From: Amphiscolops sp. MND2022
Taxonomy: Eukaryota
DNA length: 64,000 nucleotides
Assembly (NCBI GenBank): GCA_964187785.1
Contig: OZ076409.1
Coordinates: 7,008,001 to 7,072,000, forward strand
Direction of reading: 5' to 3'
Part shown: positions 10,557 to 60,400 of the stretch, in pieces
How the letters are laid out: every line of letters starts with the position of its first letter
How positions within the stretch are numbered: the stretch's first letter is position 1
Position numbers and translations under genes: made by a program
Notes under the pieces: generated by a model
Seen by the model: the letters and a program-made list of their open reading frames with translations, nothing else
Databases searched by the model: none
Told to the model about the DNA's origin: nothing

Positions 10557-13500
10557 ATGATGGATAACTTGGGTTTCATGAACATTACCTCTGACATCAA
10601 CAATTCCATGTCGAGCAACAACTCAAATGGCGAGAACGAAATTGTTGCTGGGCCCGCGAGACCTTTTTGGTTCCTGTTCTGTAAGATCTTTCTCAACATC
10701 ATGGGCATGCTTGGAAACTCGACAGTTATTATAATCTATTCGAAGAAGAAAGATTTCAGACCCAGCGAATGTTTCATCCTGTCTATCGCTTCCGTCGATT
10801 TCTGCTTTTCCTTTCTCAGTTTGCTGCTTTGGGTCCTGGGCTTCTTCTCTGCAAACACGGAAACGATCAACAGTATGCTGATCACCTTTGTGATCTACTA
10901 TTCGCTCTATCTCATCTTCTGGGTCAGCTTCAATCGCTACATCGCAGTTATCAAACCCATCGATTACATGCAGATCTTTTCCAGCCGAACAGTTTTCACC
11001 ATCATCGCCACCGGATTCCTGTTCGGAGTCATTTTCGCGATGATACCAGTTCTCTACTACAACACTAGGTAGTGTTCAATACTGAAACTGAATTTAAAAT
11101 TGAAACTGAAACTGAAACTCTAGGTACTGAAACGATTTTGAAAAAACTGAAAGTGGAACTGAAACTGAATTGACAAAATAAATAAAACTAAAACTGAAAC
11201 TAGAACTGAAACATACGAAACAATTATTTCAGCAAGTCCTTGTTTGTTGCCAAACGGGGACCCTTTAGCCTCGTCCAGTTTTGTATGTTATGCTATAAAA
11301 GAAACAAATGTTATAGGCACGTTAAGGTGCAATTTGGCGCCTTAAAATTTTGTAGAACTTTTGGTAGAACTATTTTGGTCACTTCAGGTGTATCGAAACA
11401 AAAAGTGACGAAAAGCCATGACTATAGTCTACTCTTTTCTTAAGAAAAGCGCCGACTAAAAAACTGAAACAAAACTGAAACTGAAATAGATAGTAAAGTA
11501 ACTGAAACTGGATCATATAAAATTTAATTTCAGTATTGAACACTAACGCTAGGTCCGAACTCTATCACAAAATTTTGGACGCCGTCTACTATTCGAGCAA
11601 AGTTTTCTTCATTCTAGTCGACATAGTTTTCATGTGTGTCGTCTACAGCAACGTTGCATCTTTGGAGAGTCGCAAAGCCGCTAAGAAGAATGCTAACTAC
11701 AAGGGCGCTGTCACGGCCGGAGAACCCCAGTCTCATGCTTTTGGCGGGGTTGGCACCAATGCAGAAATCGGCAATTGTGCCTCCAAAAACGGAGTTAAAT
11801 TTGCCGGAGGTTAGTGAATTGACTCGTGTACTGAATATGGTGGATCGTGTTTTTCGTGTATTTTCAGGAGTCGGAAAAATTGTGCCTTTTCTCTCCCGAC
11901 CTTTCACTGAAAATTTCAAACTTCTCAAAAACTGTCCATACGATTTTTATGAAATTTAGCACAGTCATTCTACACCCTAGGGTGCTCCTGAGTGCGCAAT
12001 GCCATCAAAATAGTATTCCTGGAATCTGCGAAACGACGAAATGACAAAGCAGGTAATTAGTTTTTCAATAATCCGTTTCCGGCTCCTTTATCGCACATGC
12101 GGCTCTGGTCTCATATTGCATCGGTATCGTGTCCAAAAAAAATTATCATACACGGTAACGTGTATTGACTGAAATAAATCAAGTTTTTGAAAGATAAGCA
12201 ATTTCGTGGGAATCGATAGTTCGTGTAACGGTACCAGAAAATTCGTGTCAATTCACTGCCGGGGGTGTACCAGGGTCAATGAACGCTGCCGGGCAGAACT
12301 GTCTCAAGGAGCACCCAGTAGTTCTGGAAGAGTCTTCTTCCCGATTCAGTGTGACCCCCAACCCCGCTGCTGATGAAATTGATGTTCTGACCCCCTCATC
12401 CCATTCACCCACGCTGAAGTTCCCCTGGAGAAAGGGAAAAGGGAGGAATGCAAAGGAGAAACCCAGGAGTCTCTTCAAACTGTCGCGCAGGGCGACCGCA
12501 GAGGGCAACGTTGTGGGCACGAATGCGAATACCCCTGCCTCCATCCCAGCTGATCAAGTTCAAGACATGGAAATGAAGCAAAACGAGTAAGTACTTTATT
12601 CAATTTTCTGCAATGGCCTGACGCAATTGTTGCTGTATTGTGCAGTTCTTTTTCATTCCTTTGTTGCTAAATTATGCTTGAAATGCCTTTTGGGGTCCGA
12701 AGCAGAAATTAGCAGCAGCCGGTGTAATTTTTTAGGAGTCATTTCTCCCGACCTTTCTTTCAATGAAAATCTCAAATTTCTCAAAAACTCCGTTCGATTT
12801 ATATAAAATTTAGTACAGTCGTTCTACTACACCCAATGATGCTCCTGCGTGCGCAATGGCATCAAAATCATATAACTGTGATCTGAGAGACATAGCCAAA
12901 ATTGTTAGAAAATGGCAAAAAAAGGTCAATTTCTCAAAAACTGTTTTAACGATTCGAACGAAAATCTTTTTACAATCATTCTACCCCATATTAGAGTCCT
13001 ATGTTTGCAATGACATCAAAATCGTATGACTGTGATATGAGAAACATTAGTCCAATTTTTTGGACAACAGCAATTTTGGACTTTTTCGATTTTCTCAAAA
13101 ACTGTCCATACGATTCAATTTTAATTTGCTTTCTATTTTAATTCGTTTGCGACCCCCTTACCGCACATGCACCTCTGGTCTATCATGAAGTTCTTTGGAC
13201 TTGAAGTTGACGTGAATTTAGAGGCAAATATGATTCAGAGTGAAGACTCATTTTTAGTCGGCGCTTTTCTAGTGAAAAGTGCCCGACACTTACAGTGGCT
13301 AGTTTTTTTCCTTTTTTTTCGTCAGACTACAATCTCACTCTGATTGGGCCACTTTTCTTACAATCGAAACTACTAAAACTACTACCATAAGGCCAAGTCC
13401 GGTCAGCGGAAATTAGTGCAAAAGGGTCCCCCCCTTCATTTCTTACTATTTTAACGTAACCTACAAAACCGGACGAGACTAAAGGGTTTTTCGATCCCCC

Positions 13501-16500
13501 CTTTCGATTTTTTCCGGCATTGTGCGACTTTTTTTCGAAAATTTTTTAATGTCTCAAAAGAGTCCCCCTTTCGAGTTTTTTGATATTTTGCAACAGAATA
13601 TATGTTAATAAAGCCCAAAGGGTCCCCCTTTTACATTTTTCGGCACTAAGCGACATTTTCTGAACGAAAAAAAATCAAAAATTTCAAGTTTTTTTTAAAA
13701 AAGTCTTTGCGCTTTTTGAGCCTTAGATATAGCGCCGACTTTAGATGTTCCCGTCTTGTTTATCATGGAATTTTTGAAGAGAACCTGGTCTGAATTCAGT
13801 CGAAATGAATTTATCACAGAGGGAGGGATGATCAAAACACCTGTGTTCGTGCTGATTTGATTCAGAGGCGTCGTATTCCGAAGGCGGAGTGATCTAAGAA
13901 TATCTAATGGAGTGTCAATAAAAACTTCACAATTCTCTCAGCAGGTCTGAAAGTCAAGTCAAGAGATTACCCGCCAAGCCTAGGCTTTCTTTGCGTCCCA
14001 AATATTGCCCCCAAGGTGAGAAACTTTGAACTGAACAAACTTACCCATTCATTGACCTGGTAGGAATGGGCGTGATTTAGGAAATCTCCCTTTTCTTTTC
14101 AAAGTCAATGTTGAAATGTCCGTGCTGTGAAAATGAATTAAAATTATCATAATACTCACAACCGAATAAATTCCTCCTGAAAGATAAAATCCAAATTCTC
14201 TAAATTTCAATTAACCTGTTCGCGGTGCAGATTGTAATTGGCTTTGTGAGCTAGATCCATCCAATAATAAGATTTTGAGGTTCACAATTTTGGCGACTTG
14301 TAGTTTTTTTGCACTAAAACATGATTTCATTTATAATTTCATTTTCCATTCACAAATCATTCATAACAAAGTTCATCATTTTGTCAATCCGTTCTCACTT
14401 TGCGCTTGTGAAATATTGGTTACCAGACAAAAGCGTCCAAAAAAAACGGAGTCAAAAGCGCCCAAAATACGCAGTCAAAAGCGCAGTCAAATTGATATAG
14501 TTCGTTCAGAAATGCCAAATTAGCCGTTCGAGTCGCTTTCAATTGAGATTTGTTAGGTGTGAAAATATCAAGTCTGGCATTCCAAGTGAGTTAACTTTGT
14601 ATTTGAACACCTTCAATTAAGCTTCATTAGAGGCGGTGAAATCAACTCAGAAATTAGTAAGACGTTTTGCATGAAGGCGCTTTTGACTGGGGCGCTTACG
14701 ACTGTGTAAAATGGGCGCTTTTGTCTGTACACGGAAATATTACATTGTTGGCTCATTTTTATTTTCGGCAGTCATTTTTGGCCGACAGCGCTATTGGCCG
14801 ACTGTGCAATTATTGACCGGCAAAATAATTTCAGAACAGCGGAATCTTACAATGGACTTTACATTTTGAAAAGAATTAAATTAGGTTTTCATAGGATGAG
14901 GAAATTGACCTGATTTTGATTCGAAATGATCTAATTTGTTTTGTTCCCATTTAAATGAAAAATAGATGTGTTCGCAAACAATTTTTCATGCACATATAGC
15001 TTTTGATTAGATGCGAATTACAGTTACATAGCAAAATTGAGAATATTTTCGCTGATATCCAAGCATATTCAATCGGGTCAGCTAACTGCACAGTCGGCCA
15101 GTTGAGCGAGCGGTCGGCCGATTACACTGCCGCCGTCATTTTTGTCAATTTCATTTGCGACATCGCACAGAGGGATGAACTTAATAAGGTAATGAAAAGT
15201 CTAGTTAAACGGGGAAGTAATTTTGGCGGATACCATGAGAATTCGAAATGACTTGCATCCAAGCTTGAGACTCAAATCCCTTTGTGGGTTAGGACGGATT
15301 TTTTTAAACGGTCCTTCTGCAATTCTACACCGTCTAATTCCGTTGTTTGATGGTTAATTTATGTACAGTGCGCTTTTTCTGGACTAATCATGAAGCATCC
15401 TATTTCACCGTAACGTTGCTTTTTTAAAACTGATCCAATTAAAATTGAAAATACAGTACTGTAGTTAAGAAATCATTTTTTAGACAAGATTTGCTCAAAA
15501 AATTGGCTGAACTTTTTGAAAAACATCCGAATTAAAAGTTTCTCGAAATTTCATCTAGTTCACATTGGTATTTTGAAAAAAATTGAGACAAAATTTGAGA
15601 AAGGTACGAATGGCTGATTTTGAGCAAAATTGTGACTTTTTGCCGTTCTTCCAATTTTGACTGCTTTATCCACAGTTTTTTGGCAAGTTTTATGCCCAAT
15701 TAATTCCCATAAATCCACTGAATCCGTGAATGTATTCTGATTCAGTTTTAATTGGCTGAGAACGTCATATGGAGCCGATTTGTTGTTCACAGTATTTTAA
15801 GCCAGTGCTGTAAAGGCGCTTTAGCTTAATCGGGAAAGTGCTAGATTTCTAAGCGTAAGGTCAATGGTTCGAACCTCGCTATTAGCCGATCTTTGATGTA
15901 AAGGATGTTAAGGTGTTTTCTTCATGAATAAAACAATTTTAAAAAACTTTTTCAGACACTTCTTCACAGTTGTTTATGGTCTAGTTTCTGACTGTTCAAT
16001 TTGTTTGGTATTTTTTGTTCACAGACCATAACGCCTCGTGTGAAAGATGATATCTGGAAAAATTCAATAAAGTGAATGACTTTCATGCTTTATATTCCTT
16101 TGTTAAATTTTTGTACCACGAAATATTTAGCAACAAATTAAAAACCGGTGTGAAAACGACACAATTGTTTTACAAAATAGTCTTCCCAAGAGGAAAAAAC
16201 AATAAAATACAAAAAACAGTTTATTTCGTTAAAAACATGTTTAAAACGTTTCTCGTGAAAAGAAAACTGTATAATTAACAACCTTTGATTTAAGCTTGAA
16301 AAGGCGCTATTGCCTAATCGGTAGAATGCTAGATTTCTCAACGTAAGGTCAAGGGTTCGAACCTCGGTATTAGCCGATCTTTTATTTAAGCTCGAACCTG
16401 GACGAGTCGAAGTTAGACGTGCAGCAACAGCCGAAAAGCAGACAACTCAGTGTGGACATGACTGTTCTGGACTCGGAAGTTTCCCCCCGTCGCAAACCCC

Positions 16501-17343
16501 CCCGAGTAGCGCTGCTGAAGAAAGCCCTTACGGGCGTGGACCTTCACCCCGATCGTACGAACAACGGGGGAGGCTCCAATGACCGGGAAACTTCTGCCCT
16601 GAATCAAGGTTGTCAAGGTGTTTTATTCATGAATAAAACAAGAAAAAAACACGAATGAAATTTTAAAAAACACCATTTTTTCCTGTTTTTTTTCAGAGCG
16701 AAAAATTGAGATTAGACTTGAAAAAATGTCACCGCCGTTTTTGGGGAACAGAAACCATTCCTAATTTCAAGGACCCCTTTTTATAATCACTGAGACAAAA
16801 TTTCTGGTAATCGAAATATTTGGCAACAAATGAAAAACCGTTGTGCATAACACATTGTTTTCAACGGTAGTTTTCCCATGAGAAAAAAATCTAAAATACA
16901 AAGAAACAGTATATTTCGTTCAAAAACTTGTTTAAAATCTTTTTCGTGAAACAAACTGTATAATTAACAACCTTGCCCTGAACCTTGCAGCTGCGCCCAT
17001 CAACGTGACCCCGGGCGGAATGCTGAAACCGAGGACCTCGTTACGACAGAAACGAGTGACGTTCACCTTGTTTTTCGTCTGTTCCATCTTCATCGCTGTC
17101 ACCCTACCCTTCACCCTGGTCGAGATCCTCTCCTATGCACCCCCCATCTTCAATGCCAAACCCATCGTTGTCTATGAACTGAAACTGGTCACTTACTTGG
17201 TGTATTGTATCAATTTTGTAGTCAACCCCTTCATCTATTTCTTCGGAAACACTTTCTACCGCAAGGAACTCTTTGAGTTGATTAACAATTCCTTCTTCTG
17301 TGGAAAATGTAAGCTGTTACTCCCTCAAAACTCGGTTGCTTGA
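10557..17343 (+). CDS. Class A (rhodopsin-like) orphan GPCR, spliced: join(10557..11068,11553..11809,12274..12586,16391..16608,16991..17343), 550 aa
   Basis: Exon 1 has N-glycosylation-rich N-terminus, TM1 GMLGN, TM2 SIASVDF, TM3 SFNRYIAV, TM4; exon 2 has TM5; exon 5 has TM6 FIAVTLPF and TM7 NFVVNPFIY (NPxxY). GT..AG introns with compatible phases 2/1/2/1; total 1653 nt divisible by 3. Start codon and exact junctions are not confirmed by transcripts. Confidence 0.88.
11070..11545. mobile_element. hAT-like MITE forming GPCR intron 1
   Basis: 18-bp perfect TIR TAGTGTTCAATACTGAAA / TTTCAGTATTGAACACTA; 8-bp TSD acactagg (11062-69) / acgctagg (11546-53); internal (AAACTG)n repeats; nested HINE fragment ~11245-11463. 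Confidence 0.9.
11812..12258. mobile_element. hAT-like MITE forming GPCR intron 2
   Basis: TIR TAGTGAATTGACTCG / CGTGTCAATTCACTG; TSD ccggaggt (11804-11) / ccgggggt (12259-66); sibling copy at 42026-42720; nested HINE-C ~11862-12110. Confidence 0.88.
13251..13760 (+). mobile_element. HINE-A copy (GPCR intron 3)
   Basis: Same 5' and 3' termini. Confidence 0.75.
15454..15800. mobile_element. Tc1/mariner-type MITE, relative of 2092-2404
   Basis: TA|CAGTACTGT start; interior matches the reverse complement of 2092-2404; right end approximate. Confidence 0.7.
15815..15887 (+). pseudogene. tRNA-like sequence (second copy 16303-16375)
   Basis: TAGCTTAATCGG A-box-like, GGTTCGAACC B-box; stems degenerate. 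Confidence 0.6.
15900..16286. mobile_element. Sibling copy of the intron-4 MITE, inside intron 3
   Basis: Shares start aaggatgttaaggtgttttcttcatgaataaaacaa and end aaactgtataattaacaacctt with 16605-16975. Confidence 0.8.
16605..16975. mobile_element. TIR MITE (CAAGG termini, superfamily uncertain) forming GPCR intron 4
   Basis: TIR CAAGGTTGT / ACAACCTTG; TSD ccctgaat (16597-604) / ccctgaac (16976-83); sibling copy at ~15900-16286. Confidence 0.82.
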
Positions 17344-17660
17344 ATTTCGAATGTAAATTGTCGGCACCTGCGAATATTTGGAAAATGTTTTCAGTTTAAT
17401 CAGTTTTTTTGGAATTCAGTCAGTATTCAAAGAATCGAAATATAGCAACTTGGAATGCTTGTGGAATTTTCGAATCGGGTGCCTAATTGATAATTGTCCA
17501 ATTGAGATTGACGTATTTTAGATGTTTGTTATGCTAATTTGTATTGCTATCAAATATTTCATGAAAAAAAGTTTAGTTTGGAGTTGATTTTTTTTTGCTG
17601 AAAGTGACTTGATGTGGGGCCATATCAATCGATTCACACCTAGTCGAACCAGGTAGACTA

Positions 17661-20439: not shown

Positions 20440-20726
20440 TGCACATGACGAAGTCAATGTGCATTGCAGTCCAGCTAAGTAAGTTTTTTTCCACAATAGT
20501 CAACTTCATAATGAGCGCCTTTTAGAAAAAAGCCAAAACCCAGAGAGATTCGAACCTGCAGCCTCCCGATTGCACGGCATAAGTGTTGACCACTGTGCCA
20601 TAGGGACGTTATTGAACAAAGTTGAACTGTTGAATATATACGCATGCGATTAAAATAATATATATACGCATATTAAAATAATCGATGTCTTCGTCATGTG
20701 TTGCGAAGCACCGCTTCGCCTGTGTG
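20440..20726 (+). mobile_element. HINE-B with internal antisense tRNA-like module (copies ~23131-23419, ~28372-28664)
   Basis: Subterminal inverted repeat CACATGACGAAG / CTTCGTCATGTG followed by hairpin GCGAAGC-ACC-GCTTCGC. Confidence 0.68.
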
Positions 20727-21070
20727 TCAATTGAAACATTCACAGACATAGAAGCATCAAAATACTGATCTATAGCTTGAGCTATAGTTTCCGCTCGACG
20801 TTCGACATTTTGATGACATTCTGAGTAAATGACAGTTTGACATTCGTGTCCATTTTCCCAATAGTTGTCGTTTAGCAATGTTTGCAGTTGGTGTGCACAA
20901 AGTCCGCCACGGAGACAACGCGTAGGCGTGAAATGATTTTGGAAACTTACGTTGAAATACACTCCAAATAATCTTCGATAGAATTCCATTCCGAGCGATT
21001 AATCGGTTAATCGAAATACCGATCAACCTTCGAACATCCCTAATTCTCGCCAATCAAATTGCGACATGAT

Positions 21071-21470: not shown

Positions 21471-24400
21471 GACATGATTGCATTTCCTTGTTTTTCTGAC
21501 TGTTTGAATGTATAAAACATGAAGCAGAAGCCATGCACAAAACTACTGAAGAGACTGTTTCTCATGGAATTCAACTGCCTTTTCTTGTCAGTCATTGAAA
21601 ATTTTTGACTATCTTTCGGAGATCATTGACTATCACTTGTTACGCCGTTTCTCGATTCCGTTCGAGCAAATGTTCCGAATTGAAAAGAATCTTTAAGCCA
21701 ATTACACTGCAGATAAGTATCCCAATAAAATGATGTACTGCTTTTTTCTGTTTGCCCATCTATTCTAACTTCATAATTATCCATCTTTTTGACTTATTCA
21801 AGCTCATTTGACTTATTTTTTTTCATTGTTTTGATATGAAATCGTTATACGACATCAAGTCTGCTGCATTTATAGCCAAAAAATAAAAGGTTTGCCAATT
21901 AGTCCTAATGATATTACTTTTTGTGGATCCCTATTGTCTTCCGTTGAAAAGATTCCTTGAAGTGAGTGCAACCGTAGAGCATGAATTGCTCCCTTTGTGA
22001 AAAAATATACCTTTTTGGTATAAGATGTATTATTTCACATACAAGTATTTCACTTTTCCACTAAAATGTTTCATAATCTCGTACTATGGAAATGTAATAG
22101 TTTCTTTACCTTACATCCAGCTAAAACTGTTTAAAGGACTTTCATACCATATATATTGTAAAATCTCGTTTTCAGATGCCAAACGTGTCAGAAATGAAAT
22201 GAAAGTGATTGACATGGTTTTCGTTGTCCAGTTCACTGTTACATTTAGGTAACGTGTCAAAATTGTAAAATTGTATACTGAGACTTCAAATCTGAAAAAA
22301 AGGCATAATCATATGAGAAAATGGTCTACCACCAGCTTGTTGAAAGGATTAATTAATTTTTTCGATGGTTTTCAAACTTCATGAAGAAGAGGGTTAAATC
22401 CAAAAAGCAATTTCGACCAATTTGTTCAAAGTATTACGCCGATTGGAAGTCCTCAAGCCACATAAATTAATTTTTCAAGAGCAGCAGATGAAGCCGGGTA
22501 AATTAACCGACAAACGGTTCATAGCGCGTTCGAAAGAAGACAATCAGGGCTTTCAATCTGATTTTTGAACTGGCTCCGAACTTTGCGCCAAAACTTTGCA
22601 CGCTTCGTATCTCTGATTTCATTTCAGCATGTTTCAAAACATGCTAGGGTTACTCTGACCCAATATTGATACCAGTGGGGTAAAAAGGCCAGAAACGAAA
22701 ACTGGAAAGCGGAAAATCTGCGCTCAATTTGTTTTTGATTTTTTGGTCCCATTTCCATGATTCCGGAAACATGCCAATATTCCGTGAAAAGGCATGCAAT
22801 GGTATATGGCAAATATTATTCAAGAATTTTTTTCACAATACGGTCAGCTAGTGCGTTGAGAAGTTCGCCGAAATTAACTGGTACGAAATCGTACCATGGT
22901 CCATTTAGGGTTAAAGCTTCCAAAACTTTATGAATAAATTCATGACATTCGGAAAATTTAAAATAATTTGCCGAATATGAAATACCATCAAGTTTTAGTG
23001 AGTTTTGAAGCTTCTAAGAACGTATCAAGGGGCTCCCTCCTGTGAATCGATCCAAATTTTTTGTTATTAAGTTCGTCCAAAACAATTCGTCCAATTTTTT
23101 TTTGCATTTTTTACAATAGGTGTATCGTTTTTGCACATGACGAAGTCAATGTGCATTGCAGTCCAGCTAAGTAAGTTTTTTTCCACAATAGTCAACTTCA
23201 TAATGATCGCCTTTTAGAAAAAAGCCAAAACCCCAGAGAGATTCGAACCTGCAGCCTCCCGATTGCACGGCATAAGTGTTGACCACTGTGCCATAGGGAC
23301 GTTATTGAACAAAGTTGAACTGTTGAATATATACGCATGCGATTAAAATAATATATATACGCATATTAAAATAATCGATGTCTTCGTCATGTGTTGCGAA
23401 GCACCGCTTCGCCTGTGTGTCAATTGAAACATTCACAGACATAGAAGCATCAAAATACTGATCTATAGCTTGAGCTATAGTTTCCGCTCGACGTTCGACA
23501 TTTTGATGACATTCTGAGTAAATGACAGTTTGACATTCGTGTCCATTTTCCCAATAGTTGTCGTTTAGCAATGTTTGCAGTTGGTGTGCACAAAGTCCGC
23601 CACGGAGACAACGCGTAGGCGTGAAATGATTTTGGAAACTTACGTTGAAATACACTCCAAATAATCTTCGATAGAATTCCATTCCGAGCGATTAATCGGT
23701 TAATCGAAATACCGATCAACCTTCGAACATCCCTAATTCTCGCCAATCAAATTGCGACATGATCAGGGCTGTTTGAAAAAAAACATGAGGTGTTTAAAAC
23801 ATTGTTTTAAACAGTTGTTTTTTAAATAAAAAATACACATTTGTATATTTCTTGGGAGCCCAGTCATTTTGCGGAAAGTTTGGCTAAGCACTTGTCCCCT
23901 GTACCGAAGACCTACTTACTCTCTGTCCGTCAAGTGCGGGATCAGAAAGAATTTTCAGTACCATGGGGTGGATCCACGATGACTTGAGGAATTGAAACTG
24001 TGGAAAAACTTACATTTTGCGCAAAAATTTGAGAAAACAATTTTTGTTGCATAAGTTTGTTTTTGAAAAAATACATTTTTGTACTTAAAACAAGTGTATT
24101 TTTTAAATGAAAAAACGTTTAAAACGTTTTTATTTTGAAAAAAAGCGGTTTTTTTGCAGCCCTGGACATGATTGCATTTCCTTGTTTTTCTGACTGTTTG
24201 AATGTATAAAACATGAAGCAGAAGCCATGCACAAAACTACTGAAGAGACTGTTTCTCATGGAATTCAACTGCCTTTTCTTGTCAGTCATTGAAAATTTTT
24301 GACTATCTTTCGGAGATCATTGACTATCACTTGTTACGCCGTTTCTCGATTCCGTTCGAGCAAATGTTCCGAATTGAAGAGAATGTTTAAGCCAATTACA

Positions 24401-42025: not shown

Positions 42026-42720
42026 CAGTGAATTGACGTCGGTACATGTACCGACCGGAACGCACAAATTTTCTTGTACCGTTACACGAACTACCGATTT
42101 ACCCGAGATATTGAAACAGTTTACATATACGAACAAGCCGAGAACGGCCAAAGTCGGCGCCATATCTAAGGCTCAAAATTGAAAAGGGGGACCCTTCGGG
42201 CTTTGTGAAACTCCAGCTGGTTGCAAAATATGAAAAAAATGAAGGGGGACCCTTTGGGGACTAGAAAAAATTTCCCAAAAAAGTGTAAAAACTGAGATTT
42301 TTGAACAGTGTCACATTGCCGAAAAATGTAAAAGGGGGGACTCTTTGGGATTTTTTGACATCCATTGTGTTGCAAAATATCGAAACAAATGAAGGGGGAC
42401 CCTTTGGTGCAATCCAAAAAATTTCAAAAAAAGTCGCATAGTGCCGAAAAAAAGTGGGGCTATAGGGGATCCTTAGTGTGATTTCGAAATTCTAGACGTG
42501 TTTTGTTTTTTCTTTTCGTTTTGGACGCGCTTTGGAGGTTCGAGTTGTTGAGGTTCGAAGTTGTTGAGGTTTGACGTAGTTGAACAAATGAACAAAAAAG
42601 TGGACCTTACGCGTCTAAAAAAACTACCCACTGTAAGAGTCGGGCACATTTTCTACTAAAATGCGCCGACTAAAAAGATACACGCGATACACGATTTTCA
42701 GTACCCAGGTGAATTCACCG
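42026..42720. mobile_element. Sibling copy of the intron-2 MITE (opposite orientation) with nested HINE-A
   Basis: Ends CAGTGAATTGAC / GTGAATTCACCG; TSD gttccgtc / attccgtc; internal gtaccgttacacgaacta matches the reverse complement of the intron-2 3' end. Confidence 0.82.
42132..42676 (-). mobile_element. HINE-A copy nested in the intron-2-family MITE
   Basis: Same termini. Confidence 0.75.
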
Positions 42721-49342: not shown

Positions 49343-49947
49343 TTTTTTAGGAGTCAGAAAAAATTTTCGACTACTTATGCAATCGTGTTGTTTTTTTTCT
49401 CCCGACCTTTTCATGAAAATCTCAAATTCCTCAAAAACTGTCCATACGATTTTCACGAAATTTTGCACAGTCACCCTTTGGGGTGTACAAAGTGACCCCT
49501 GCGTGCACAAAGGCATCAAAATCGTATGACTGGAATGTGAGAAACATAGCCAAAATTAGCCCAAAAATGGCTAAAAAACAGCTATTTTTCGACTTTTTTT
49601 GATTTTCGCAAAAACTTTCCATACGATTCGAACGAAATTTTCTACAGTCATTCTACACCATATGATAGTCCTTTGCGTGTGATTTCATCAAATTCGTATT
49701 GCTGAGATGTGAGAAACATAGCCTAAATTAACCCAAAAATGGCCAAAAAAACAGCTATTTTTCGACTTTTTTTGATTTTCGCAAAAACTGTCCATATGAT
49801 TAGACCGAAAATTTCTACAGTCATTTTCTACACCATAGGATGGTCCTATATGTGGAATTCCAATAAATTGGTATGACTGGGATTGGAGCGAGTCAGAAGG
49901 AAAAGACCTAAGCCGACTCCTTTACCGCATATGCGGCTCTGGTTTTT
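49343..49947 (+). mobile_element. HINE-C / Helitron-like repeat (copies ~11862-12110, ~12730-13160)
   Basis: 5' ttttAGGAGTC, 3' GACTCCT plus hairpin CCGCATATGCGG then CTCTGGT; internal tandem units. Confidence 0.68.
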
Positions 49948-52129: not shown

Positions 52130-53260
52130 CCCCTGTTGAATTTTTAAAAAGACGCATATCTAGTATTTTATTGACAAACCAGAGTTTCTAATACATTGTG
52201 AAATACGATTGGGCATAGAAGAATAAAGTTTTTCGATGAAAGAGTCCTTAACATTATTCCAAACAGAATAAACTGCTTCTTCGAGGGTGTCCGGGGTGAG
52301 GTGCATTGCGTTGAGTTCCCTCTTCATTTGCGCCCAGACATTTTCTATGGGGTTGAAATCTGGGCTGTATGAGGGCCAGAACTCTTTCGCAATACCATTG
52401 TCATGAAGCCACTGCTTAACTTCCCTCGATCGATGGATGGGACAGTTGTCATCCATGAAAAACTGGTCCTCGCCCAACGTGTCGATTCCGGCCGTCTTCA
52501 GCAGATCAATATAGTCTGCACTCTTGAATCTTTTTGGGGTCTTCAACAATACTCGAGACCCATTGCCACTTATGCAGCTCCAAAATATCATTGAAAATCG
52601 CGATGTTGTCTTCTCGATTGTTTTCTCTGGCTTGTACCGAGTACCAGTGGTCCTCCAGACATAGACTCGTCCATCACTCTTCAATGAAAACTTGTATTCG
52701 TCGCTTAAAACAACGCGTTTCCACTCCTCCACGGTCTTATTACGTTTCTGCTTTGCCCAGAGCAGTCGATTAACACGGGTTTCTGCTCTCATTCGAAGCA
52801 TCTTCGCAGCGGCACGGCCTACAAGGTCCATTTTGTGCAAGTTTCGTCTAATTGTCTTTGTAGATACATTTTTCATGCTGAAACTGTTGAATAGAACACG
52901 AAGTTTTTCTGCCGATGCCTTTTTGTTCTTTACAATTCTTCGCAGCCAATTTTGATATTTTTGTGTCAATTTCGGAGGTCTACCACTCCTTTTTGCGCCG
53001 TCTACACTGCCATTTTTCAGGTAGTTTTTATAGATTGTTTGAGCCGTTGATTTGTTTGAAAAACGCATCTTCTCTCGAATTTTCTCCCACGAAAGCCCCA
53101 AATCTCGAAGAATAACGACCTTAAGGCGTTCTTGAGACGTTCTTTTAACCATTTTAAACGTTATAACGTTTTAACAGTGAACGGAAGTAAGTTTTTTTTC
53201 ACGCTTCCTAGAAATTTTATACATTTAACTAGCATGCCGTAAATTTTGGTTCATGCACTG
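52130..53260 (-). mobile_element. Tc1 element retaining only one TIR
   Basis: Minus strand begins TA|CAGTGCATGAACCAAAATTTACGGCA at 53260; no matching TIR seen downstream of the stop codon; left boundary approximate. Confidence 0.75.
52160..53152 (-). CDS. Tc1-family DD34E transposase, uninterrupted 330 aa ORF
   Basis: N-terminal HTH region with GRPPKL; SDE, DDNCPIH, WPSYSPDFNPIENVW; 34 residues between second D and E. Confidence 0.95.
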   Translation of the reverse strand: MVKRTSQERLKVVILRDLGLSWEKIREKMRFSNKSTAQTIYKNYLKNGSVDGAKRSGRPPKLTQKYQNWLRRIVKNKKASAEKLRVLFNSFSMKNVSTKTIRRNLHKMDLVGRAAAKMLRMRAETRVNRLLWAKQKRNKTVEEWKRVVLSDEYKFSLKSDGRVYVWRTTGTRYKPEKTIEKTTSRFSMIFWSCISGNGSRVLLKTPKRFKSADYIDLLKTAGIDTLGEDQFFMDDNCPIHRSREVKQWLHDNGIAKEFWPSYSPDFNPIENVWAQMKRELNAMHLTPDTLEEAVYSVWNNVKDSFIEKLYSSMPNRISQCIRNSGLSIKY

Positions 53261-53700: not shown

Positions 53701-56088
53701 GTCTTGAACAAAAAGAAAAACAATGGATAACAACAATACTGACCTCAATTCCACGGAGGACAGACCGATGTCTTCGGAACAGACAACACGGACAACCAAC
53801 AACCAAACGATGTCAGAAAGAGCGGAAAAAAGCAAGTACAAGATTCCCATTTTGTCTGATAGAGAAACCGATCTTACCAAAGCCAACCCAAAGATGTGGT
53901 GGGAACAAATTTCGGAATACATTCTTTTGACCTACAACCGAAACTTGGACGAAATTACCGATGAAGGAGTAGAATACATGGACCCTCACACGGTATACCA
54001 CATAAAAGGTGACGTTATCTGGGCTCTAGGCCCAAAAGCCAAACATGAAATCATGAGAGGACAATGGGGCCGAGAAATAAAAGATGTCAAATTGCCAGAA
54101 TTATTGACACTATTCAAAAAAACTTTTTTCCCGGTAAGAAACGTCTTCCACAGCAGGGCCCAATTTTTCAATATGAAGCAAGACGATAACGAGACTTTAG
54201 ATGAATACTGGAAGAGGCTCGTGGACATCGAGAGAAAGTGTGACTTTGGGAACATAACGGCAGAAGAAATCATCACGTACAAATTTGCAGCCACAATTAA
54301 AGATAAACGAGCCCGGGACAAATTCATAAAGGGCCCTCTGAAAATACAATTGGTATTAGAGACCATAGAGCTCGACAATTACAACAGAAAGTACGGTGAT
54401 AAAAAACCCAAAACCAAAAAAGCCAAAAAAGATTCCACAAGTAGTTCAACAAGCACCGAACTAATCGGACATACGAACCAATCACGGAAGCGGAGGACAC
54501 AATTTAACGACAAAAAGAAATTAACGAACAAAAACTGTCGCTTCTGCGGAAAGCCAAACTGGTCCATGGAACACATTTGCCCGGCACGGAGAGCACAATG
54601 CAACAATTGCAAAAAGATGGGACACTTTGCCAAGGTTTGCAAATCCAAGACCGTAAGCCGGATAGCCGAAGTGGTTTCATCGGACAGTAACACCGAATCA
54701 TGGCCGGAAGTGGACCACATTCAATCCGTGAACGGTATTAACCGAGTCGACTTCTACAAAACTATCCTATTGGTCCACGGCCAGCCAATAGAATTCATTA
54801 TTGATACCGGCTCTCCAGTGACAATTATTCCGCCAATTATTGATTTAACCGAAGTGAAGAAAACGACAAAAACATTTGTGGACGTAAACAAGAATCCAAT
54901 AAAATTCAAGGGGGAAGCCATGGTTGAAGTGAAAACAGAAAAAAGCAGAGAGATATTACCAATCTTAATAACAGAAAATAAAAATACTCAACCGTTATTG
55001 GGCTTGGACTGGCTTGATAAATTGGAAATTGGATTACAAGGCAGCAAGAAAACAAATGTTATTCGTCATGTGACAGAAGACGAAAGAAGAAAAAGAATCC
55101 TCAACGAATACGAAGATCTATTCAAAAACAACCACACTATCAAAGACCTTACCATCGACATTCAGTTGAAAAAAGACGTCAAGCCAATCCAGCAAAAGGG
55201 ACGGCCGGTCCCTATCCATTTGCAAAAAATTGTCCGTGAAGAGTTAGAAAAACTAATAGACAAAGGACATCTGGAAAAGGCTGACAGAACAACTGAAAAT
55301 TGTTTTGTATCACCCGCAGTTATCACCATCAAAAAGGACAAATCAGTCAAAATAGCTCTGGATTCACGAAAACTGAACGACGCATGTATAAAAAGAAAAG
55401 CTGCAATGCCGAACATGGAAGAATAGATTAGCAAAATCTCCGCAAAAATTACCAAAGGAAATGGGGATATTTGGATGTCCAAAATCGATCTGGATTATGC
55501 ATACGGACAAGCGAAATTGTCGAAAGAAGCCGCAAGACACTGCGTATTCTCCATCATTGGAGGAGAATTCACCGGACACTACCGGTTCAAGAAAGGCTTC
55601 TACGGTTTATCCGACATCCCTACGGTATTCCAAGAGCACATCGACTCCGTGTTGGAATTCAAAACATCGGTCTGGCTAGACGACATCATATGCGTGACTA
55701 ACGGTGATATCGAAGATCATGAAAAAGAATTGCGAGAAGTTTTGTCAAAACTGCAAGACGCTGGTTATCGGGCAAGTGAAAAGAAAACAGAATTATTCAG
55801 AAAGGAATTAACCTGGCTCGGCTACTATATCAACCAAAACGGCGTTAAACCAATCAAGGACAAAACGGAAGCAATAACTAAATTAGAAGCCCCGAAGAAC
55901 GTGAAAGAACTGAAATCATTCCTGGGATCAATACAACATTTATCAAAGTTTATCAACAATCTATCGAAGAAAACCGACGAAATGAGAAAACTCTTGAGAA
56001 AGGATACCAAATGGGAGTGGACACCCGAGATAGACGAAGACTTTGAAAAGCTGAAGAAAGAGATCACAGAGGCCCCATGCCTAGCACA

Positions 56089-57428
56089 CAGGGCTGTCAT
56101 ATTGTTAGTTAAAAACGATATTAACATGTTAACATGTAAATTACACAAAAGTAGATGTAAATAACAGTAAAATTGTAAAAATCAAAATCTTAGTCTTTGT
56201 TCAACTGCTTGAACAAAAAGGCCATTTTTCCCGCTTTTTCAACTCCAAGAGAGCTGCGTAGCGTTCCATATGTCAAGCCTAGGGTTGAAAAGTAGCGCTC
56301 GAGTCCTGCACTTGAGGCTACGGCTGTGACAATAGAGCAGGCGATTTGAACCAACTTCGCAGAAAATCCAAATTTTATGCCACCTTTCCACCAGGCATCT
56401 GGTGAGACATTTTTGGAGATTGCCATGGAAACGATGGTCGAGCAGATTGGCAGCAAAAGTTAATAACAAGTTGTTAATAACACTATGTAAATAACATGAC
56501 AGCCCTGCTTCTTTCTGCTGCAAAATATCTTTTGAAAGCAAATTTGCCATATGGGCATGACAACCATATGTGTGGATTTCTGAAAATCGGTTCCTCATTG
56601 ACGCCATATTGGCTGCATTGTCAGTAACTACACTGCAAATTTTAACTGAAAATTCCGATTCTACAAAGGCTAACTGCTCACGGACTATACGCTCTAAATA
56701 ATCTGCTGTATGCGATTCGCCAGTTGTAACCATGGTAGTAACTAAATAGGGCACCCCTTGGCAAATAAAACATACTCCAAGGACGGGCTCATTTGTGAGG
56801 GTGGACCACCCATCGATGGCAAGCGTAGCATTCATGCCCCTGACTTTTACCTTGACTTTCTCTTTTTCTTGCTCGTAAACTTCGTCTAAAAGTTCACCCG
56901 CTAGTCTTCGGCGATCAGGGATAACAGCTCCGGGCTTCATTTTCTGCACAAAATCTTTAAAATTTTTGTTCGCGGCGGCATTGAAAGGTGTATTGGTGGC
57001 GACAAAATAGCGCACTAGAGAAAGATCCATTTCATGTTGTTTGGATTTTGATATGCAAATGTCCATAGTAGTCTGCTTCAAGACCTTAGAGGGCCCAGGT
57101 CCGTCTACTTGCTGAACATCTTCATCGTCAGGTTTTGCTGCGCATTTCTTCAGATGAGCTTCCAGTCTAACAGGATTATTCACAATTTCCGTATTGCAAG
57201 CCTTGCATTTCCCTTTTTTAACACCATTAACAGTAACAGAAAGAAATTTATCCCACACCGGCTTTTTCGCTGGAGGCATTTCAGTGATCTGAAAAAATAC
57301 AATAACACCGAATGATGAAAATCCAAAAAAAACTGTTAAAATCGGATGTTAATTTCAAAACATTCATGTAAATAACATGTAAATTAAAGGCTTGTTAATA
57401 ACACTATGTAAATAACATGACAGCCCTG
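56089..57428 (-). mobile_element. hAT transposon (internally deleted) inserted in Gypsy pol
   Basis: 12-bp TIR CAGGGCTGTCAT; perfect 8-bp TSD ctagcaca (56081-88 / 57429-36). Confidence 0.96.
56190..57279 (-). pseudogene. Truncated hAT transposase (BED finger, catalytic N-half, C-terminal dimerisation remnant)
   Basis: WDKF..CKAC..HLKKC; AIDGWS, VVTDNAANM, GCHAH; then in another frame WWK..ASSAGLERYFS..RSSL; middle missing. Confidence 0.9.
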
Positions 57429-60400
57429 CTAGCACATTTCGACCCACAGAAGGAAAACTACATCACCACAGATGCGAGCAATACCGGATTGGGCGCAACA
57501 CTATGGCAGAAAGAAGGTGAAACTTTTAGACCCGTAGCATTCGCAAGTAGATTTTTAACTGATTGTGAAAAGAAATACGCAATTAATGAACTAGAATTAT
57601 TAGGGGCTCTTTGGGGTTTAGAATACTTCAGGTATTTTGTGTATGGAAAAAGAGTAAATTTGTTAACAGATCACCAGGCGTTACAACCGCTATTGAAAAA
57701 GAACCGAGCTCATAAGCAATACAGCGCACGATTAACACGTTGGCTGGATAGATTGAGCCATTTCGATGTCAATGTTGAATACACGGCCGGTAAAAACATT
57801 CCGCTGACGGACTATTTGAGCCGTCATCCGATTATACCATCCGAGATTGCCGAACTAGAAAACAAAGCGGACGGATTAACCGAAGCGGAAGCCGAAGAAG
57901 AGTTCGTCATTAATCAAATATACGGCTTATTAGAATTCAACCAAAAACGCGGCAGCATAAAACGATTCACTGAACGAAACGACACGACAGAAAAATTCAA
58001 CCAATCACAACGCGGCTCTAACACACGCGAACGGAACCAAAATACTCACTTGCTTAAAGCCTCACCGTTACCAAACAGCAGCATTTCAAACTCATTCAAA
58101 ACCTTACCGTCGCCAAGCAATAAAATGGACAAGGTCAACAGAATTGATATGGATTTTATATTCAAAAAGAGAGGCCATTCACCAGAAACGAAGCGTTTAT
58201 GGATCGAAAGAAACCATATCCTGAAACCGGACAAAACTCGAATAGTGGGGAAGGGCAAAGAAAGTGAGAGAATTCAAGAATATAGACCCAATCAAGCGGG
58301 GCGAAAACGAATTGCGGAATTAAACATTGAAATTTATAACCGTTTCTTCCACTATTGCGAAACATTAAACATGACCCCTTTACAAGAATTTCAACAGAAC
58401 AACAATGAATCCTGGACCAACAGCAATCAGTCCGACGGAGAAAGCCAGACGAGCCGGACAAAGCAAGACAAATGCCCCACCAACGCATTGAGACGGTTCA
58501 AGAAACACGAAACGGTCAACCTCATTAGACTGAAGCAGACGGCCAAACTGAACACGCTAGAGCCAGAACAAAATGAGAAGACCGCTGACGTACTAAAGAA
58601 AGCAGAGAAGGATTTTGCATTGGACCTGCCTCTACTGGTGGAGGAGACAGCACGCGATATCAAAATCCTAAATACAATTGCCGCAATTGAACAGCAACAA
58701 CTGGAGAGCATATTCTATCCATACCGCCCCCACCGTCTACATCTATCAACCAGATTCGGACTGCTATTTTATAACGACAGAATAGTCATACCGGAAAACA
58801 TGCGGTCGACAATCATTGCTATGCTGCACCACGGCCATGTCTCCAAAAACAAAATGGAACAACTCGCAGAAGCCTTCTGGTGGCCCGACCTGAACCGAGA
58901 TGTACACGAAAAAGCGGAAACATGCCCGAGCTGTAGAGCTGCAGGTAAGAACATCATTACACAAATTCCGTCAACGGAAAAAAATAATTTAGAAATTTTA
59001 ACCGAACCGAATCAGGAGATTCAATTGGATTTCGCCGGTCCAATTAACTCAAAATCACGCGGTGACGTTTACATTTTAGTAGCAGTAGACAGTTTTAGCA
59101 AGTGGCCCACCGCACAAGTATGTAAAAGTGCGGATACTCGGACCGTTTTAAAATTTTTAACCGAATATTTCACAAACAACGGGACACCACAGTGCATTAG
59201 AACCGATAACGGCAGCTGCTTCAAAAGCAGCGAATTCAAAAAATTTTGTACGGATGAAAACATAAAACGTATAAGATGCACTCCGAACCTACATACCGGC
59301 ACTGGTCTAGTCGAGCGTATGATACGGACAATTAAGTCATTAACTAGAGCGAATATGGCCGATGAATTAAACTTTGAAGACAGCATCCAATTAGCAATCA
59401 AAACAATCAGACAGACTCCACACAGTAGACTAAACATGACGCCTTTTCAAATGCACTTAGGCAGAAAACCACGAACTGCACTTATCAACATAATCGGTAA
59501 ACCTGAATGTCTGCTATCCAATTGGAAGAAAACGCTAACCAATTATATTTTAGCACAACCAACAGAGTTACAAGTAGTCACCATCAACGACGCTGAAGGG
59601 GAAATGGCCGACTACCTGGTACTCAACGATACTCGAAAAAGAAGCCGTTCGGTAAGCCGGAAATTCAAAAAATATCAGTTTTTAGAAAAAGAAAACAGAC
59701 CCAATTCAATGAAATGTGGTTTTAAAACAGATAAAATTTTAACGGCAACAAAAGAAACCGATCATACTGTCACTACCTCTGATGGCAGGATAATACACAA
59801 AAAACTGGCCTCTAAACCTTTAAAATTTCAGACCCAAAGGAAACCAGACGAACCGAAGAAGGCCATTACCCGCTGCAAAAGGTGCGGAAAATTCAGCAGC
59901 GACAAATACTGCGAAGCACACCGACAATTAGACAGTAATAACAATGACGCCGAGGAAGGACCTAGCACCAGCCGCAACTTCCCGACAATGCCCGCAAAGA
60001 AGAAATACAAGCGGATAATCACTTACGATTCATCCAGCAAAGAATCCAACACCGCCGACCCCAGCTCGGGAGAAGATAACCCCAACTCCGACAGGGAAGA
60101 AGATCCGGAGGAGACAGACCTCAGAGCCGAGATCGGACGGGAAATTGAAAGATTGCGGGAGCAGACACCGGCACCCACAACACAAGTCGGATGTAGCACC
60201 GGACGGGCCAGCACTCCACCACAACCGGACGTTCAGGGCACACCGATACACCGCCAAACAACGCTTGACACTGGAATCGAAATCGCCGAACCAGGAGACG
60301 GGATAACAGGTAAAATTAGGGCGGAACAAAACTCTTACTTTGGAAAAAAATCAAATAAAATCAGAACCTGAACCGCGTAGATCCGAAAGAATAAAATCAG

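Follow-up and report, generated by a model that had tools for sequence, protein, structure and literature searches.

Many kinds of elements with terminal inverted repeats (TIRs), most of them non-autonomous, are able to form introns, and many families of such introners can be present in one genome (bioRxiv 10.1101/2022.06.06.494994; PMC12130899). The survey of 2022 recorded introners in 175 of 3,325 genomes and in two animal groups only; a single genome could hold as many as 43 families, and the target-site duplication (TSD) served for splice sites in varied ways (bioRxiv 10.1101/2022.06.06.494994). The survey of 2025, published in PNAS, covered 8,716 genomes and lists 1,093 families in 201 species; most are non-autonomous, 82% of those classified are TIR DNA elements, and the introners of a sea urchin and of Styela were validated (PMC12130899). 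According to the surveys, introners are nearly confined to protists, fungi and a small number of marine animals, and the birth of introns in animals is documented by few cases. Here we describe a stretch of 64,000 nucleotides, called the window below, from the acoel Amphiscolops sp. MND2022 (contig OZ076409.1, positions 7,008,001 to 7,072,000). It contains a gene for a G-protein-coupled receptor (GPCR), three of whose four predicted introns are built around miniature inverted-repeat transposable elements (MITEs), named E1, E2 and E4 and lying in introns 1, 2 and 4. Our preferred reading, to which we give a probability of about 0.8, is that three hAT-like MITEs of three families hit continuous coding sequence of this gene and were tolerated as spliced-out introns.

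The mechanism is the one known for introners, and the host group is new as far as our searches reach. As in the introners of Gozashti et al., non-autonomous elements with TIRs and TSDs that lie in exons become whole introns; the element supplies one splice site and the TSD or the flank the second one, with small in-frame scars. Unlike in that work, splicing is here predicted only, and three families are found in a single gene; moreover, the families of Gozashti et al. are sets of similar annotated introns, whereas our E1 and E2 show no enrichment in genes. The introners of Micromonas and Aureococcus are likewise MITE-like, with one splice site borne by the element, the second arising in the duplicated target, and precise or nearly precise removal, but they are algal and have TSDs of 3 nt (PMC11282704), as compared with TSDs of 8 bp and elements of 370-480 nt in an animal host here. 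The introner-like elements of dinoflagellates also combine TIRs and TSDs, take a splice site from the TSD, and show many families and flexible solutions (bioRxiv 10.1101/2020.10.14.339549); their host is a protist, their numbers are far larger, and the TSDs of the Symbiodinium example measure 4 bp (bioRxiv 10.1101/2022.06.06.494994). Among animals, the tunicate Fritillaria borealis has MITE-derived introns in its genome too, but its new introns are mostly non-GT-AG and need an altered spliceosome (PMC11282704), whereas all ends predicted here are GT-AG. Finally, the acoel Praesagittifera naikaiensis has a repeat-rich genome with hAT elements and many transposable elements in introns; its authors failed to find introns made of a transposable element only (PMC6451197), whereas intron 1 of the present gene would consist of a MITE and its TSD only. 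The genome paper on Symsagittifera is silent about such introns in its passages on introns. No acoel genus name was found in 12 of the 14 supplementary files of PMC12130899 (files 13 and 14 lay outside the search), and a full-text search that combined 'introner' with 'acoel' returned one unrelated paper only.

Three predicted transposon-bounded introns in one receptor gene

The gene is of the rhodopsin type and occupies positions 10557-17343 of the plus strand, on which all its parts and the three elements lie. Its five exons join into one open frame of 550 codons, and each of the four predicted introns begins with GT and ends with AG, as found by reading and by script. The junctions 11068/11553, 11809/12274 and 16608/16991, proposed in a preliminary description made from the letters alone, are of this GT...AG kind and, together with intron 3, give this single frame. 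Exon 1 (10557-11068) runs from the start codon to transmembrane helix 4 (TM4) and matches the Pfam family 7tm_1 (E 1.1e-13, profile positions 1-125), while the last part of this profile (positions 194-260, E 8.7e-06) is matched in exon 5 (16991-17343), which encodes TM6, TM7, the C-terminus and the stop. The long middle part between both matches is the third intracellular loop. Exon 2 (11553-11809) encodes TM5 and the beginning of this loop, and exon 3 (12274-12586) continues it. Exon 4 (16391-16608) contains RQLSVDMTVLDSEVSPRRKP, which is conserved in two homologues introduced below, P0001 and P0006. No close paralogue of the receptor was found in its own genome, the sole other match having 28% identity.

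E1 (11070-11545, 476 nt) is an inverted repeat with a TIR of 15 nt, TAGTGTTCAATACTG, identical at both ends, and is flanked by the TSD ACACTAGG (11062-11069) and ACGCTAGG (11546-11553). The final 7 nt of exon 1 are part of the left TSD, and intron 1 (11069-11552) consists of the last base of that TSD, E1 and the 7 nt with which the right TSD begins. This span equals the inserted DNA exactly (476 + 8), and the predicted excision is scarless, with a net change of 0. The target would have ended in AGG, whose last G, with the initial T of the TIR, would form the donor AG|GTAGTG; the acceptor would be the AG of the duplicated target. Other copies of E1 in the genome are 82-88% identical, with the same first and last bases and TSDs of 8 bp, which have at most one mismatch in 7 of the 9 other copies. 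A 19-mer count gives 20 exact left ends.

E2 (11812-12258, 447 nt) has the TIRs TAGTGAATTGACTCG and CAGTGAATTGACACG and the TSD CCGGAGGT (11804-11811) and CCGGGGGT (12259-12266). In the window copy, E2 sequence is confined to about 55 nt at its left and about 65 nt at its right end; the interior belongs to another repeat, and the copy lacks about 27 nt adjoining the right TIR. It is the terminal 55-65 nt that E2 copies share genome-wide; other copies have TSDs of 8 bp, and there are at least 39 matches to the left end. The interior (11887-12111) is a piece of an abundant repeat, of which short tandem arrays are also present in 12742-13181, within intron 3, and in 49393-49943. In intron 2 (11810-12273), the GT with which the left TSD ends is the predicted donor (GAG|GTTAGT), and the predicted acceptor is the first AG past the element, ending 15 nt after E2 and 7 nt past the right TSD. 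Splicing would cost a net 9 nt of former coding sequence. By eye, the right end of E2 may carry a branch-site-like TTCAC.

E4 (16605-16975, 371 nt) has the TIRs CAAGGTTGTCAAGG and CAAGGTTGTTAATT, begins with CAAGGTTGT and ends with ACAACCTTG, and lies between the TSD copies CCCTGAAT (16597-16604) and CCCTGAAC (16976-16983). Its 16-mer count gives 74 exact right ends in the genome; other copies have the same termini and TSDs of 8 bp, with at most two mismatches in 11 of 13 (12 when the window copy is counted). The predicted donor of intron 4 (16609-16990) lies within the left TIR (CAAG|GTTGTC), whose first four bases, CAAG, become the final 4 nt of exon 4, and the predicted acceptor is again the first AG past the element, which ends 15 nt after it and 7 nt beyond the right TSD; the net change is -3 nt. 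An alternative donor 9 nt further in (16617|16618, CAAG|GTGTTT) is equally in frame and may be the one used. At 16612-16614 in the left TIR, the family reads GTTAAGG and the window copy GTCAAGG, a change that removes an in-frame TAA for the 16617|16618 donor. Here too, a branch-site-like motif, TTAAC, may be present at the right end, as judged by eye.

E1, E2 and E4 are genuine multi-copy MITE families of their own 1.07-Gb genome. In the window, the two TSD copies differ by 1 mismatch in 8 for each element, and TSDs of 8 bp are common to all three families, which we therefore call hAT-like; by this feature they probably belong to one superfamily. The TIRs of hAT elements are short and start with YA(R/A)NG, and we take the starts TAGTG (E1), CAGTG (E2) and CAAGG (E4) to fit. 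The preliminary description had also held that introns 1, 2 and 4 are each a TIR-bounded element with an 8-bp TSD, from three families, and that each reached its splice sites by a solution of its own; the first point is borne out by the same termini in other copies of the genome, and the second by the predicted donors, i.e. TSD-derived G plus TIR-derived T for E1, a GT of the TSD for E2 and a GT internal to the TIR for E4.

The same description reported free-standing siblings of two families in the window, and this was true in part only. No second copy of E1 was found within the 64 kb, and the sibling of E2 is an end fragment near 42040-42110. An E4-like copy is indeed present at 15900-16286 (plus strand), but it has no TSD (7 of 8 positions mismatch). 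It follows a repeat unit of 93 nt (15809-15901), a second copy of which, 86% alike, precedes exon 4 and then E4. The upstream duplicate reads as the downstream region with exon 4 cut out exactly at its splice borders, and the end of the second unit is the acceptor of intron 3 (ttatttaag|). Judging from this arrangement, 15809-16286 looks like a local duplicate of 16297-16975 minus exon 4 rather than an independent insertion. We considered dating E4 by means of this duplicate but dropped the idea, only the ends aligning well (about 85-87%) and the middle not. The 93-nt unit was also considered as tRNA-like, a candidate that was rejected: ARAGORN finds no tRNA in the window, and Rfam gives only a chance match to a small nucleolar RNA (E 0.62).

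Absence from relatives and the state of the gene

We estimate that a frame-preserving pair of GT and AG within 15 nt of an insertion arises about once per insertion by chance. For this reason such pairs carry little weight alone, and the weight lies with comparative evidence. With exon 1 as the query, a word-indexed search returned four homologues (P0001-P0004). In a related species, P0002 (392 aa, from a contig of 14,281 nt) is a single open reading frame (ORF) over exons 1-3, 80% identical in exon 1, that stops exactly at the donor of intron 3, i.e. at the end of exon 3; and P0006 (161 aa, from a contig also of 14,281 nt) is a single ORF over exons 4-5 that starts inside exon 4 and is 94% identical in exon 5. 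Both being uninterrupted, at the sites of introns 1 and 2 and of intron 4 respectively, the related species has intron 3 only. Intron 3 (12587-16390), 3.8 kb long, crowded with repeats and with the donor GTAAGT at 12587, is on this comparison the only intron shared with relatives; the ancestral gene would have had a single intron, and MITE introns 1, 2 and 4 are lineage-specific gains. P0003 and P0004 are also continuous across the site of intron 1; P0004, 57% identical, belongs to the acoel Symsagittifera roscoffensis in NCBI and UniRef. All four homologues keep the same length across junction 1; at junctions 2 and 4 the length of the third intracellular loop varies among species. P0001 (540 aa, contig of 2,315 nt) is 92% identical in exon 1 and collinear with all five exons, and exon 5 is nearly identical in P0001 and P0006.

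An exhaustive search of representatives with exon 1 found no close relatives beyond P0002, P0003 and P0008, an ORF of 164 aa from a separate record of the same species. P0008 ends with ...YYNTR, exactly where the TAG of E1 begins, so the E1 insertion is not peculiar to this assembly. Another public record of the same species, P0005 (155 aa, 100% identical to exon 5; window 17341-17500), reads the TGA stop of the receptor as W; as a real extension of the protein it was rejected, being a gene call under another genetic code.

These comparisons bear on the possibility that the three positions held older introns, which MITEs invaded later. MITEs are common in introns, many of them lie in intron 3, and among the E4 copies discussed below, L038 occupies the acceptor of an intron already present in a Peptidase_M28 gene. 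However, intron 1 consists of the element and TSD bases only, introns 2 and 4 have just 7 extra bases, which read as former codons, the TSDs fall within coding sequence, and the related species is uninterrupted at all three sites. We therefore hold an invasion of older introns to be very improbable. Under the preferred reading, i.e. insertion into coding sequence, E1, E2 and E4 would have come at different times into a gene with one intron, and each would have been tolerated because the spliceosome removes the element as an intron. E2 and E4 would use the first downstream AG, at the cost of small in-frame changes in a loop of variable length.

A further possibility is that the gene is a pseudogene riddled with transposable elements, in which MITEs piled up after its death and the GT/AG pairs are those that chance provides, at the rate estimated above. 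The window is dense in repeats, and a dead stretch of 1.65 kb could gather insertions. But the frame has no stop and no frameshift over 550 codons, although E1 alone, compared with a leave-one-out consensus of seven other copies, has gathered 18 substitutions as well as 9 indel events over 463 nt. When a coding sequence of 1,650 nt drifts at the rate of E1 (3.9% neutral divergence), it stays open in 15% of simulations with substitutions alone, and a simple proportion gives about 30 expected indel events; these simulated drift figures are upper bounds on age. Besides, only 7 changes of the window lineage fall in the 283 ungapped columns of the transmembrane core (exons 1 and 5). The intact frame and the nearly invariant membrane core argue strongly for a working gene. 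A dead gene thus seems unlikely from the sequence, and the elements would then have to leave the mRNA.

It could also be that the insertions are real but that only shortened or alternative products are made, through exon skipping or truncation after TM4. The weak donor and acceptor motifs, detailed below, would agree with this. Yet exon 5, with TM6 and TM7, is nearly identical to that of both relatives, which is unexpected if it is not translated in frame with exons 1-4, and the frame would be lost if exon 4 (218 nt) were skipped. Such an outcome appears improbable to us, a little more so than a dead gene.

Copies of the three families in other genes

Sampled copies of the three families were removed in silico together with one TSD, and open frames were sought on both flanks. 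At seven of the 19 sampled E4 loci, each flank holds 50 or more open codons, and E4 is in the sense orientation every time (L037, L040, L043, L046, L048, L050 and L052); 11 of the 19 have no such flanking frames, and the copy in the Peptidase_M28 gene, L038, was mentioned above. As a baseline, this is seen for 1 of 26 E2 copies (antisense) and for 6.6-13% of random sites (Fisher test of 7/19 against 1/26, p 0.006). At all seven E4 loci, as in the window, the donor in the TIR and the first AG past the element join both open frames; the net changes at the seven are +9, 0, +6, +3, about -6, +3 and -3, for which the probability is about 5e-4 with a chance of 1/3 each.

Two of these loci interrupt recognizable genes. 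L040, near 71.19 Mb of C7, is the gene for ATP-citrate lyase (ACLY), with a net change of 0: its left flank aligns with residues 1-114 of the human protein and its right flank with residues 117-340, and residues 115-116 are filled by the last codon on the left and the codon split at the predicted junction. L048, near 9.166 Mb of C1, is SEL1L, with flanks that align with residues 535-606 and 614-759 of human SEL1L. No Pfam match was found in the flanks of the other five of these seven loci; their GC, exon-like, amounts to 41-58% as against 26-36% in the elements, except for the right flank of L046 with 35%. A search of the ESM Atlas with the 497-aa flank of L050 gave no lead (best score 0.83).

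For E1, one of the nine other copies, L009, lies in a frame of 590 codons with the TSD CATGCAGG and shows the same layout as in the receptor gene (AG|G+TAGTG ... AG|G), with a predicted net change of 0. Its right flank, near 1.720 Mb of C4, is GCN1 (Pfam GNC1_N, E 1.1e-12). P0007, an 803-aa ORF of a relative that is 41% identical, is uninterrupted at this E1 site, and the tblastn match begins at the junction; BLASTP of the left flank against P0007 was not significant, although by eye both begin with MV(L/V)QK, and neither flank had a usable match among solved structures. The 18-mer made of AGG and the left TIR of E1 occurs only twice in the genome, in the GPCR and GCN1 genes, both times scarless and in long ORFs. 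Intron-type copies thus amount to 2 of 20 exact left ends (binomial against 1/64, p 0.04). An antisense E1 case, L007, was rejected as an intron; its net change would be -25 nt, and we take it as chance. No convincing intron-type copy of E2 was found among 26 other copies.

That the same families, in the same layouts, also interrupt the housekeeping genes for ATP-citrate lyase, SEL1L and GCN1 speaks further against the gene being dead, for it is unlikely that all of these are. The preliminary description had proposed that MITEs are routinely turned into introns in this genome and that no specialised introner family is involved. The first idea agrees with the behaviour of E4 (7 of 19 loci, in sense and in exons), but not with that of E1 (2/20) or E2 (0/26), and the second is qualified by the sense-only, exonic position of E4 at those loci, which gives it the look of a specialised intron-former. 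On the basis of these counts, E4 behaves like a dedicated intron-former, adapted to or filtered for splicing, while E1 and E2 resemble ordinary MITEs, whose exonic insertions survive only in the rare cases that can be spliced.

Copies of E4 cluster at C1:6.05-9.17 Mb, around the window (C1:7.008-7.072 Mb). Eight of the 19 best-matching loci (L037, L038, L042, L043, L047, L048, L053 and L054) and 7 of the 74 exact right ends fall in these approximately 3.1 Mb of a genome of 1,067 Mb (binomial p 3e-9), a distribution that looks like local hopping. Other copies tend to sit near contig ends. The trinucleotide CAG is present in 5 of 14 E4 target duplications, whereas the 8-mers of the window lead one to expect 6.8% (p 0.002), and three target duplications end in AG, in the manner of a splice acceptor (CCTTGCAG, AGTGTCAG and CTGCAAAG). 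The presence of CAG may reflect a target preference or a survival filter.

Weight of the evidence, neighbouring features and meaning

Several points weigh against the reading of the three elements as spliced introns. All junctions are predictions from the genomic letters. The donors GTAGTG (intron 1) and GTTGTC (intron 4) fit poorly to the usual GTRAGT, a consensus which may not be that of the host, and a clear pyrimidine tract is missing from the acceptors of introns 1 and 2. P0001 is taken to be a transcript of a sister species on one ground, namely that its contig of 2,315 nt is too short for intron 3. When the species of P0002 and P0006 serves as outgroup, the lineage of the window has more amino-acid changes of its own than that of P0001 (24 versus 17), a difference that is not significant (chi-square about 1.2). 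Part of the divergence of E1 may predate its insertion; the insertion would then be younger and the intact frame less telling. The samples of copies are small: 19 loci for E4 (L036-L054), 9 to 20 for E1 and 26 for E2. Lastly, only 2 of the 7 exonic E4 cases, ATP-citrate lyase and SEL1L, are proven by homology; four others rest on long open frames with exon-like GC, and L046, whose right flank has 35% GC, is doubtful.

Elsewhere in the window, a Tc1/mariner-type transposase ORF of the DDE_3 type lies at 52160-53170 on the minus strand, and a long terminal repeat (LTR) retrotransposon with gag, protease, reverse transcriptase, RNase H and integrase occupies 53708-60371 on the plus strand. Its pol region is interrupted by a DUF659 ORF of the opposite strand (56239-57348, minus), and a strong skew of A over T at 54-60 kb coincides with it. 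Two identical open frames of 129 codons, 2.7 kb apart at 20609-20998 and 23302-23691 on the minus strand, suggest a recent tandem duplication.

As for the meaning of the finding, a single gene would record three independent intron births, from three families and by three splice-site solutions, beside one old intron. If RNA confirms the junctions, acoels would be a new animal system for intron gain and E4 a candidate for experiments on the spliceability of transposons. One may go further and propose that this acoel lineage gains introns genome-wide through hAT-like MITEs, with E4 as a dedicated intron-generating element, a proposal to which we would give even odds. The features of E4 that enter into it are its sense-only orientation in exons, its enrichment in exons, a donor built from the TIR, the branch-site-like TTAAC and the apparent local hopping. 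If this is true, it would run counter to the published report that no introns made of a transposable element only could be found in another acoel, and Xenacoelomorpha would be a further animal group with active introners, offering a tractable bilaterian in which to watch the birth of introns.

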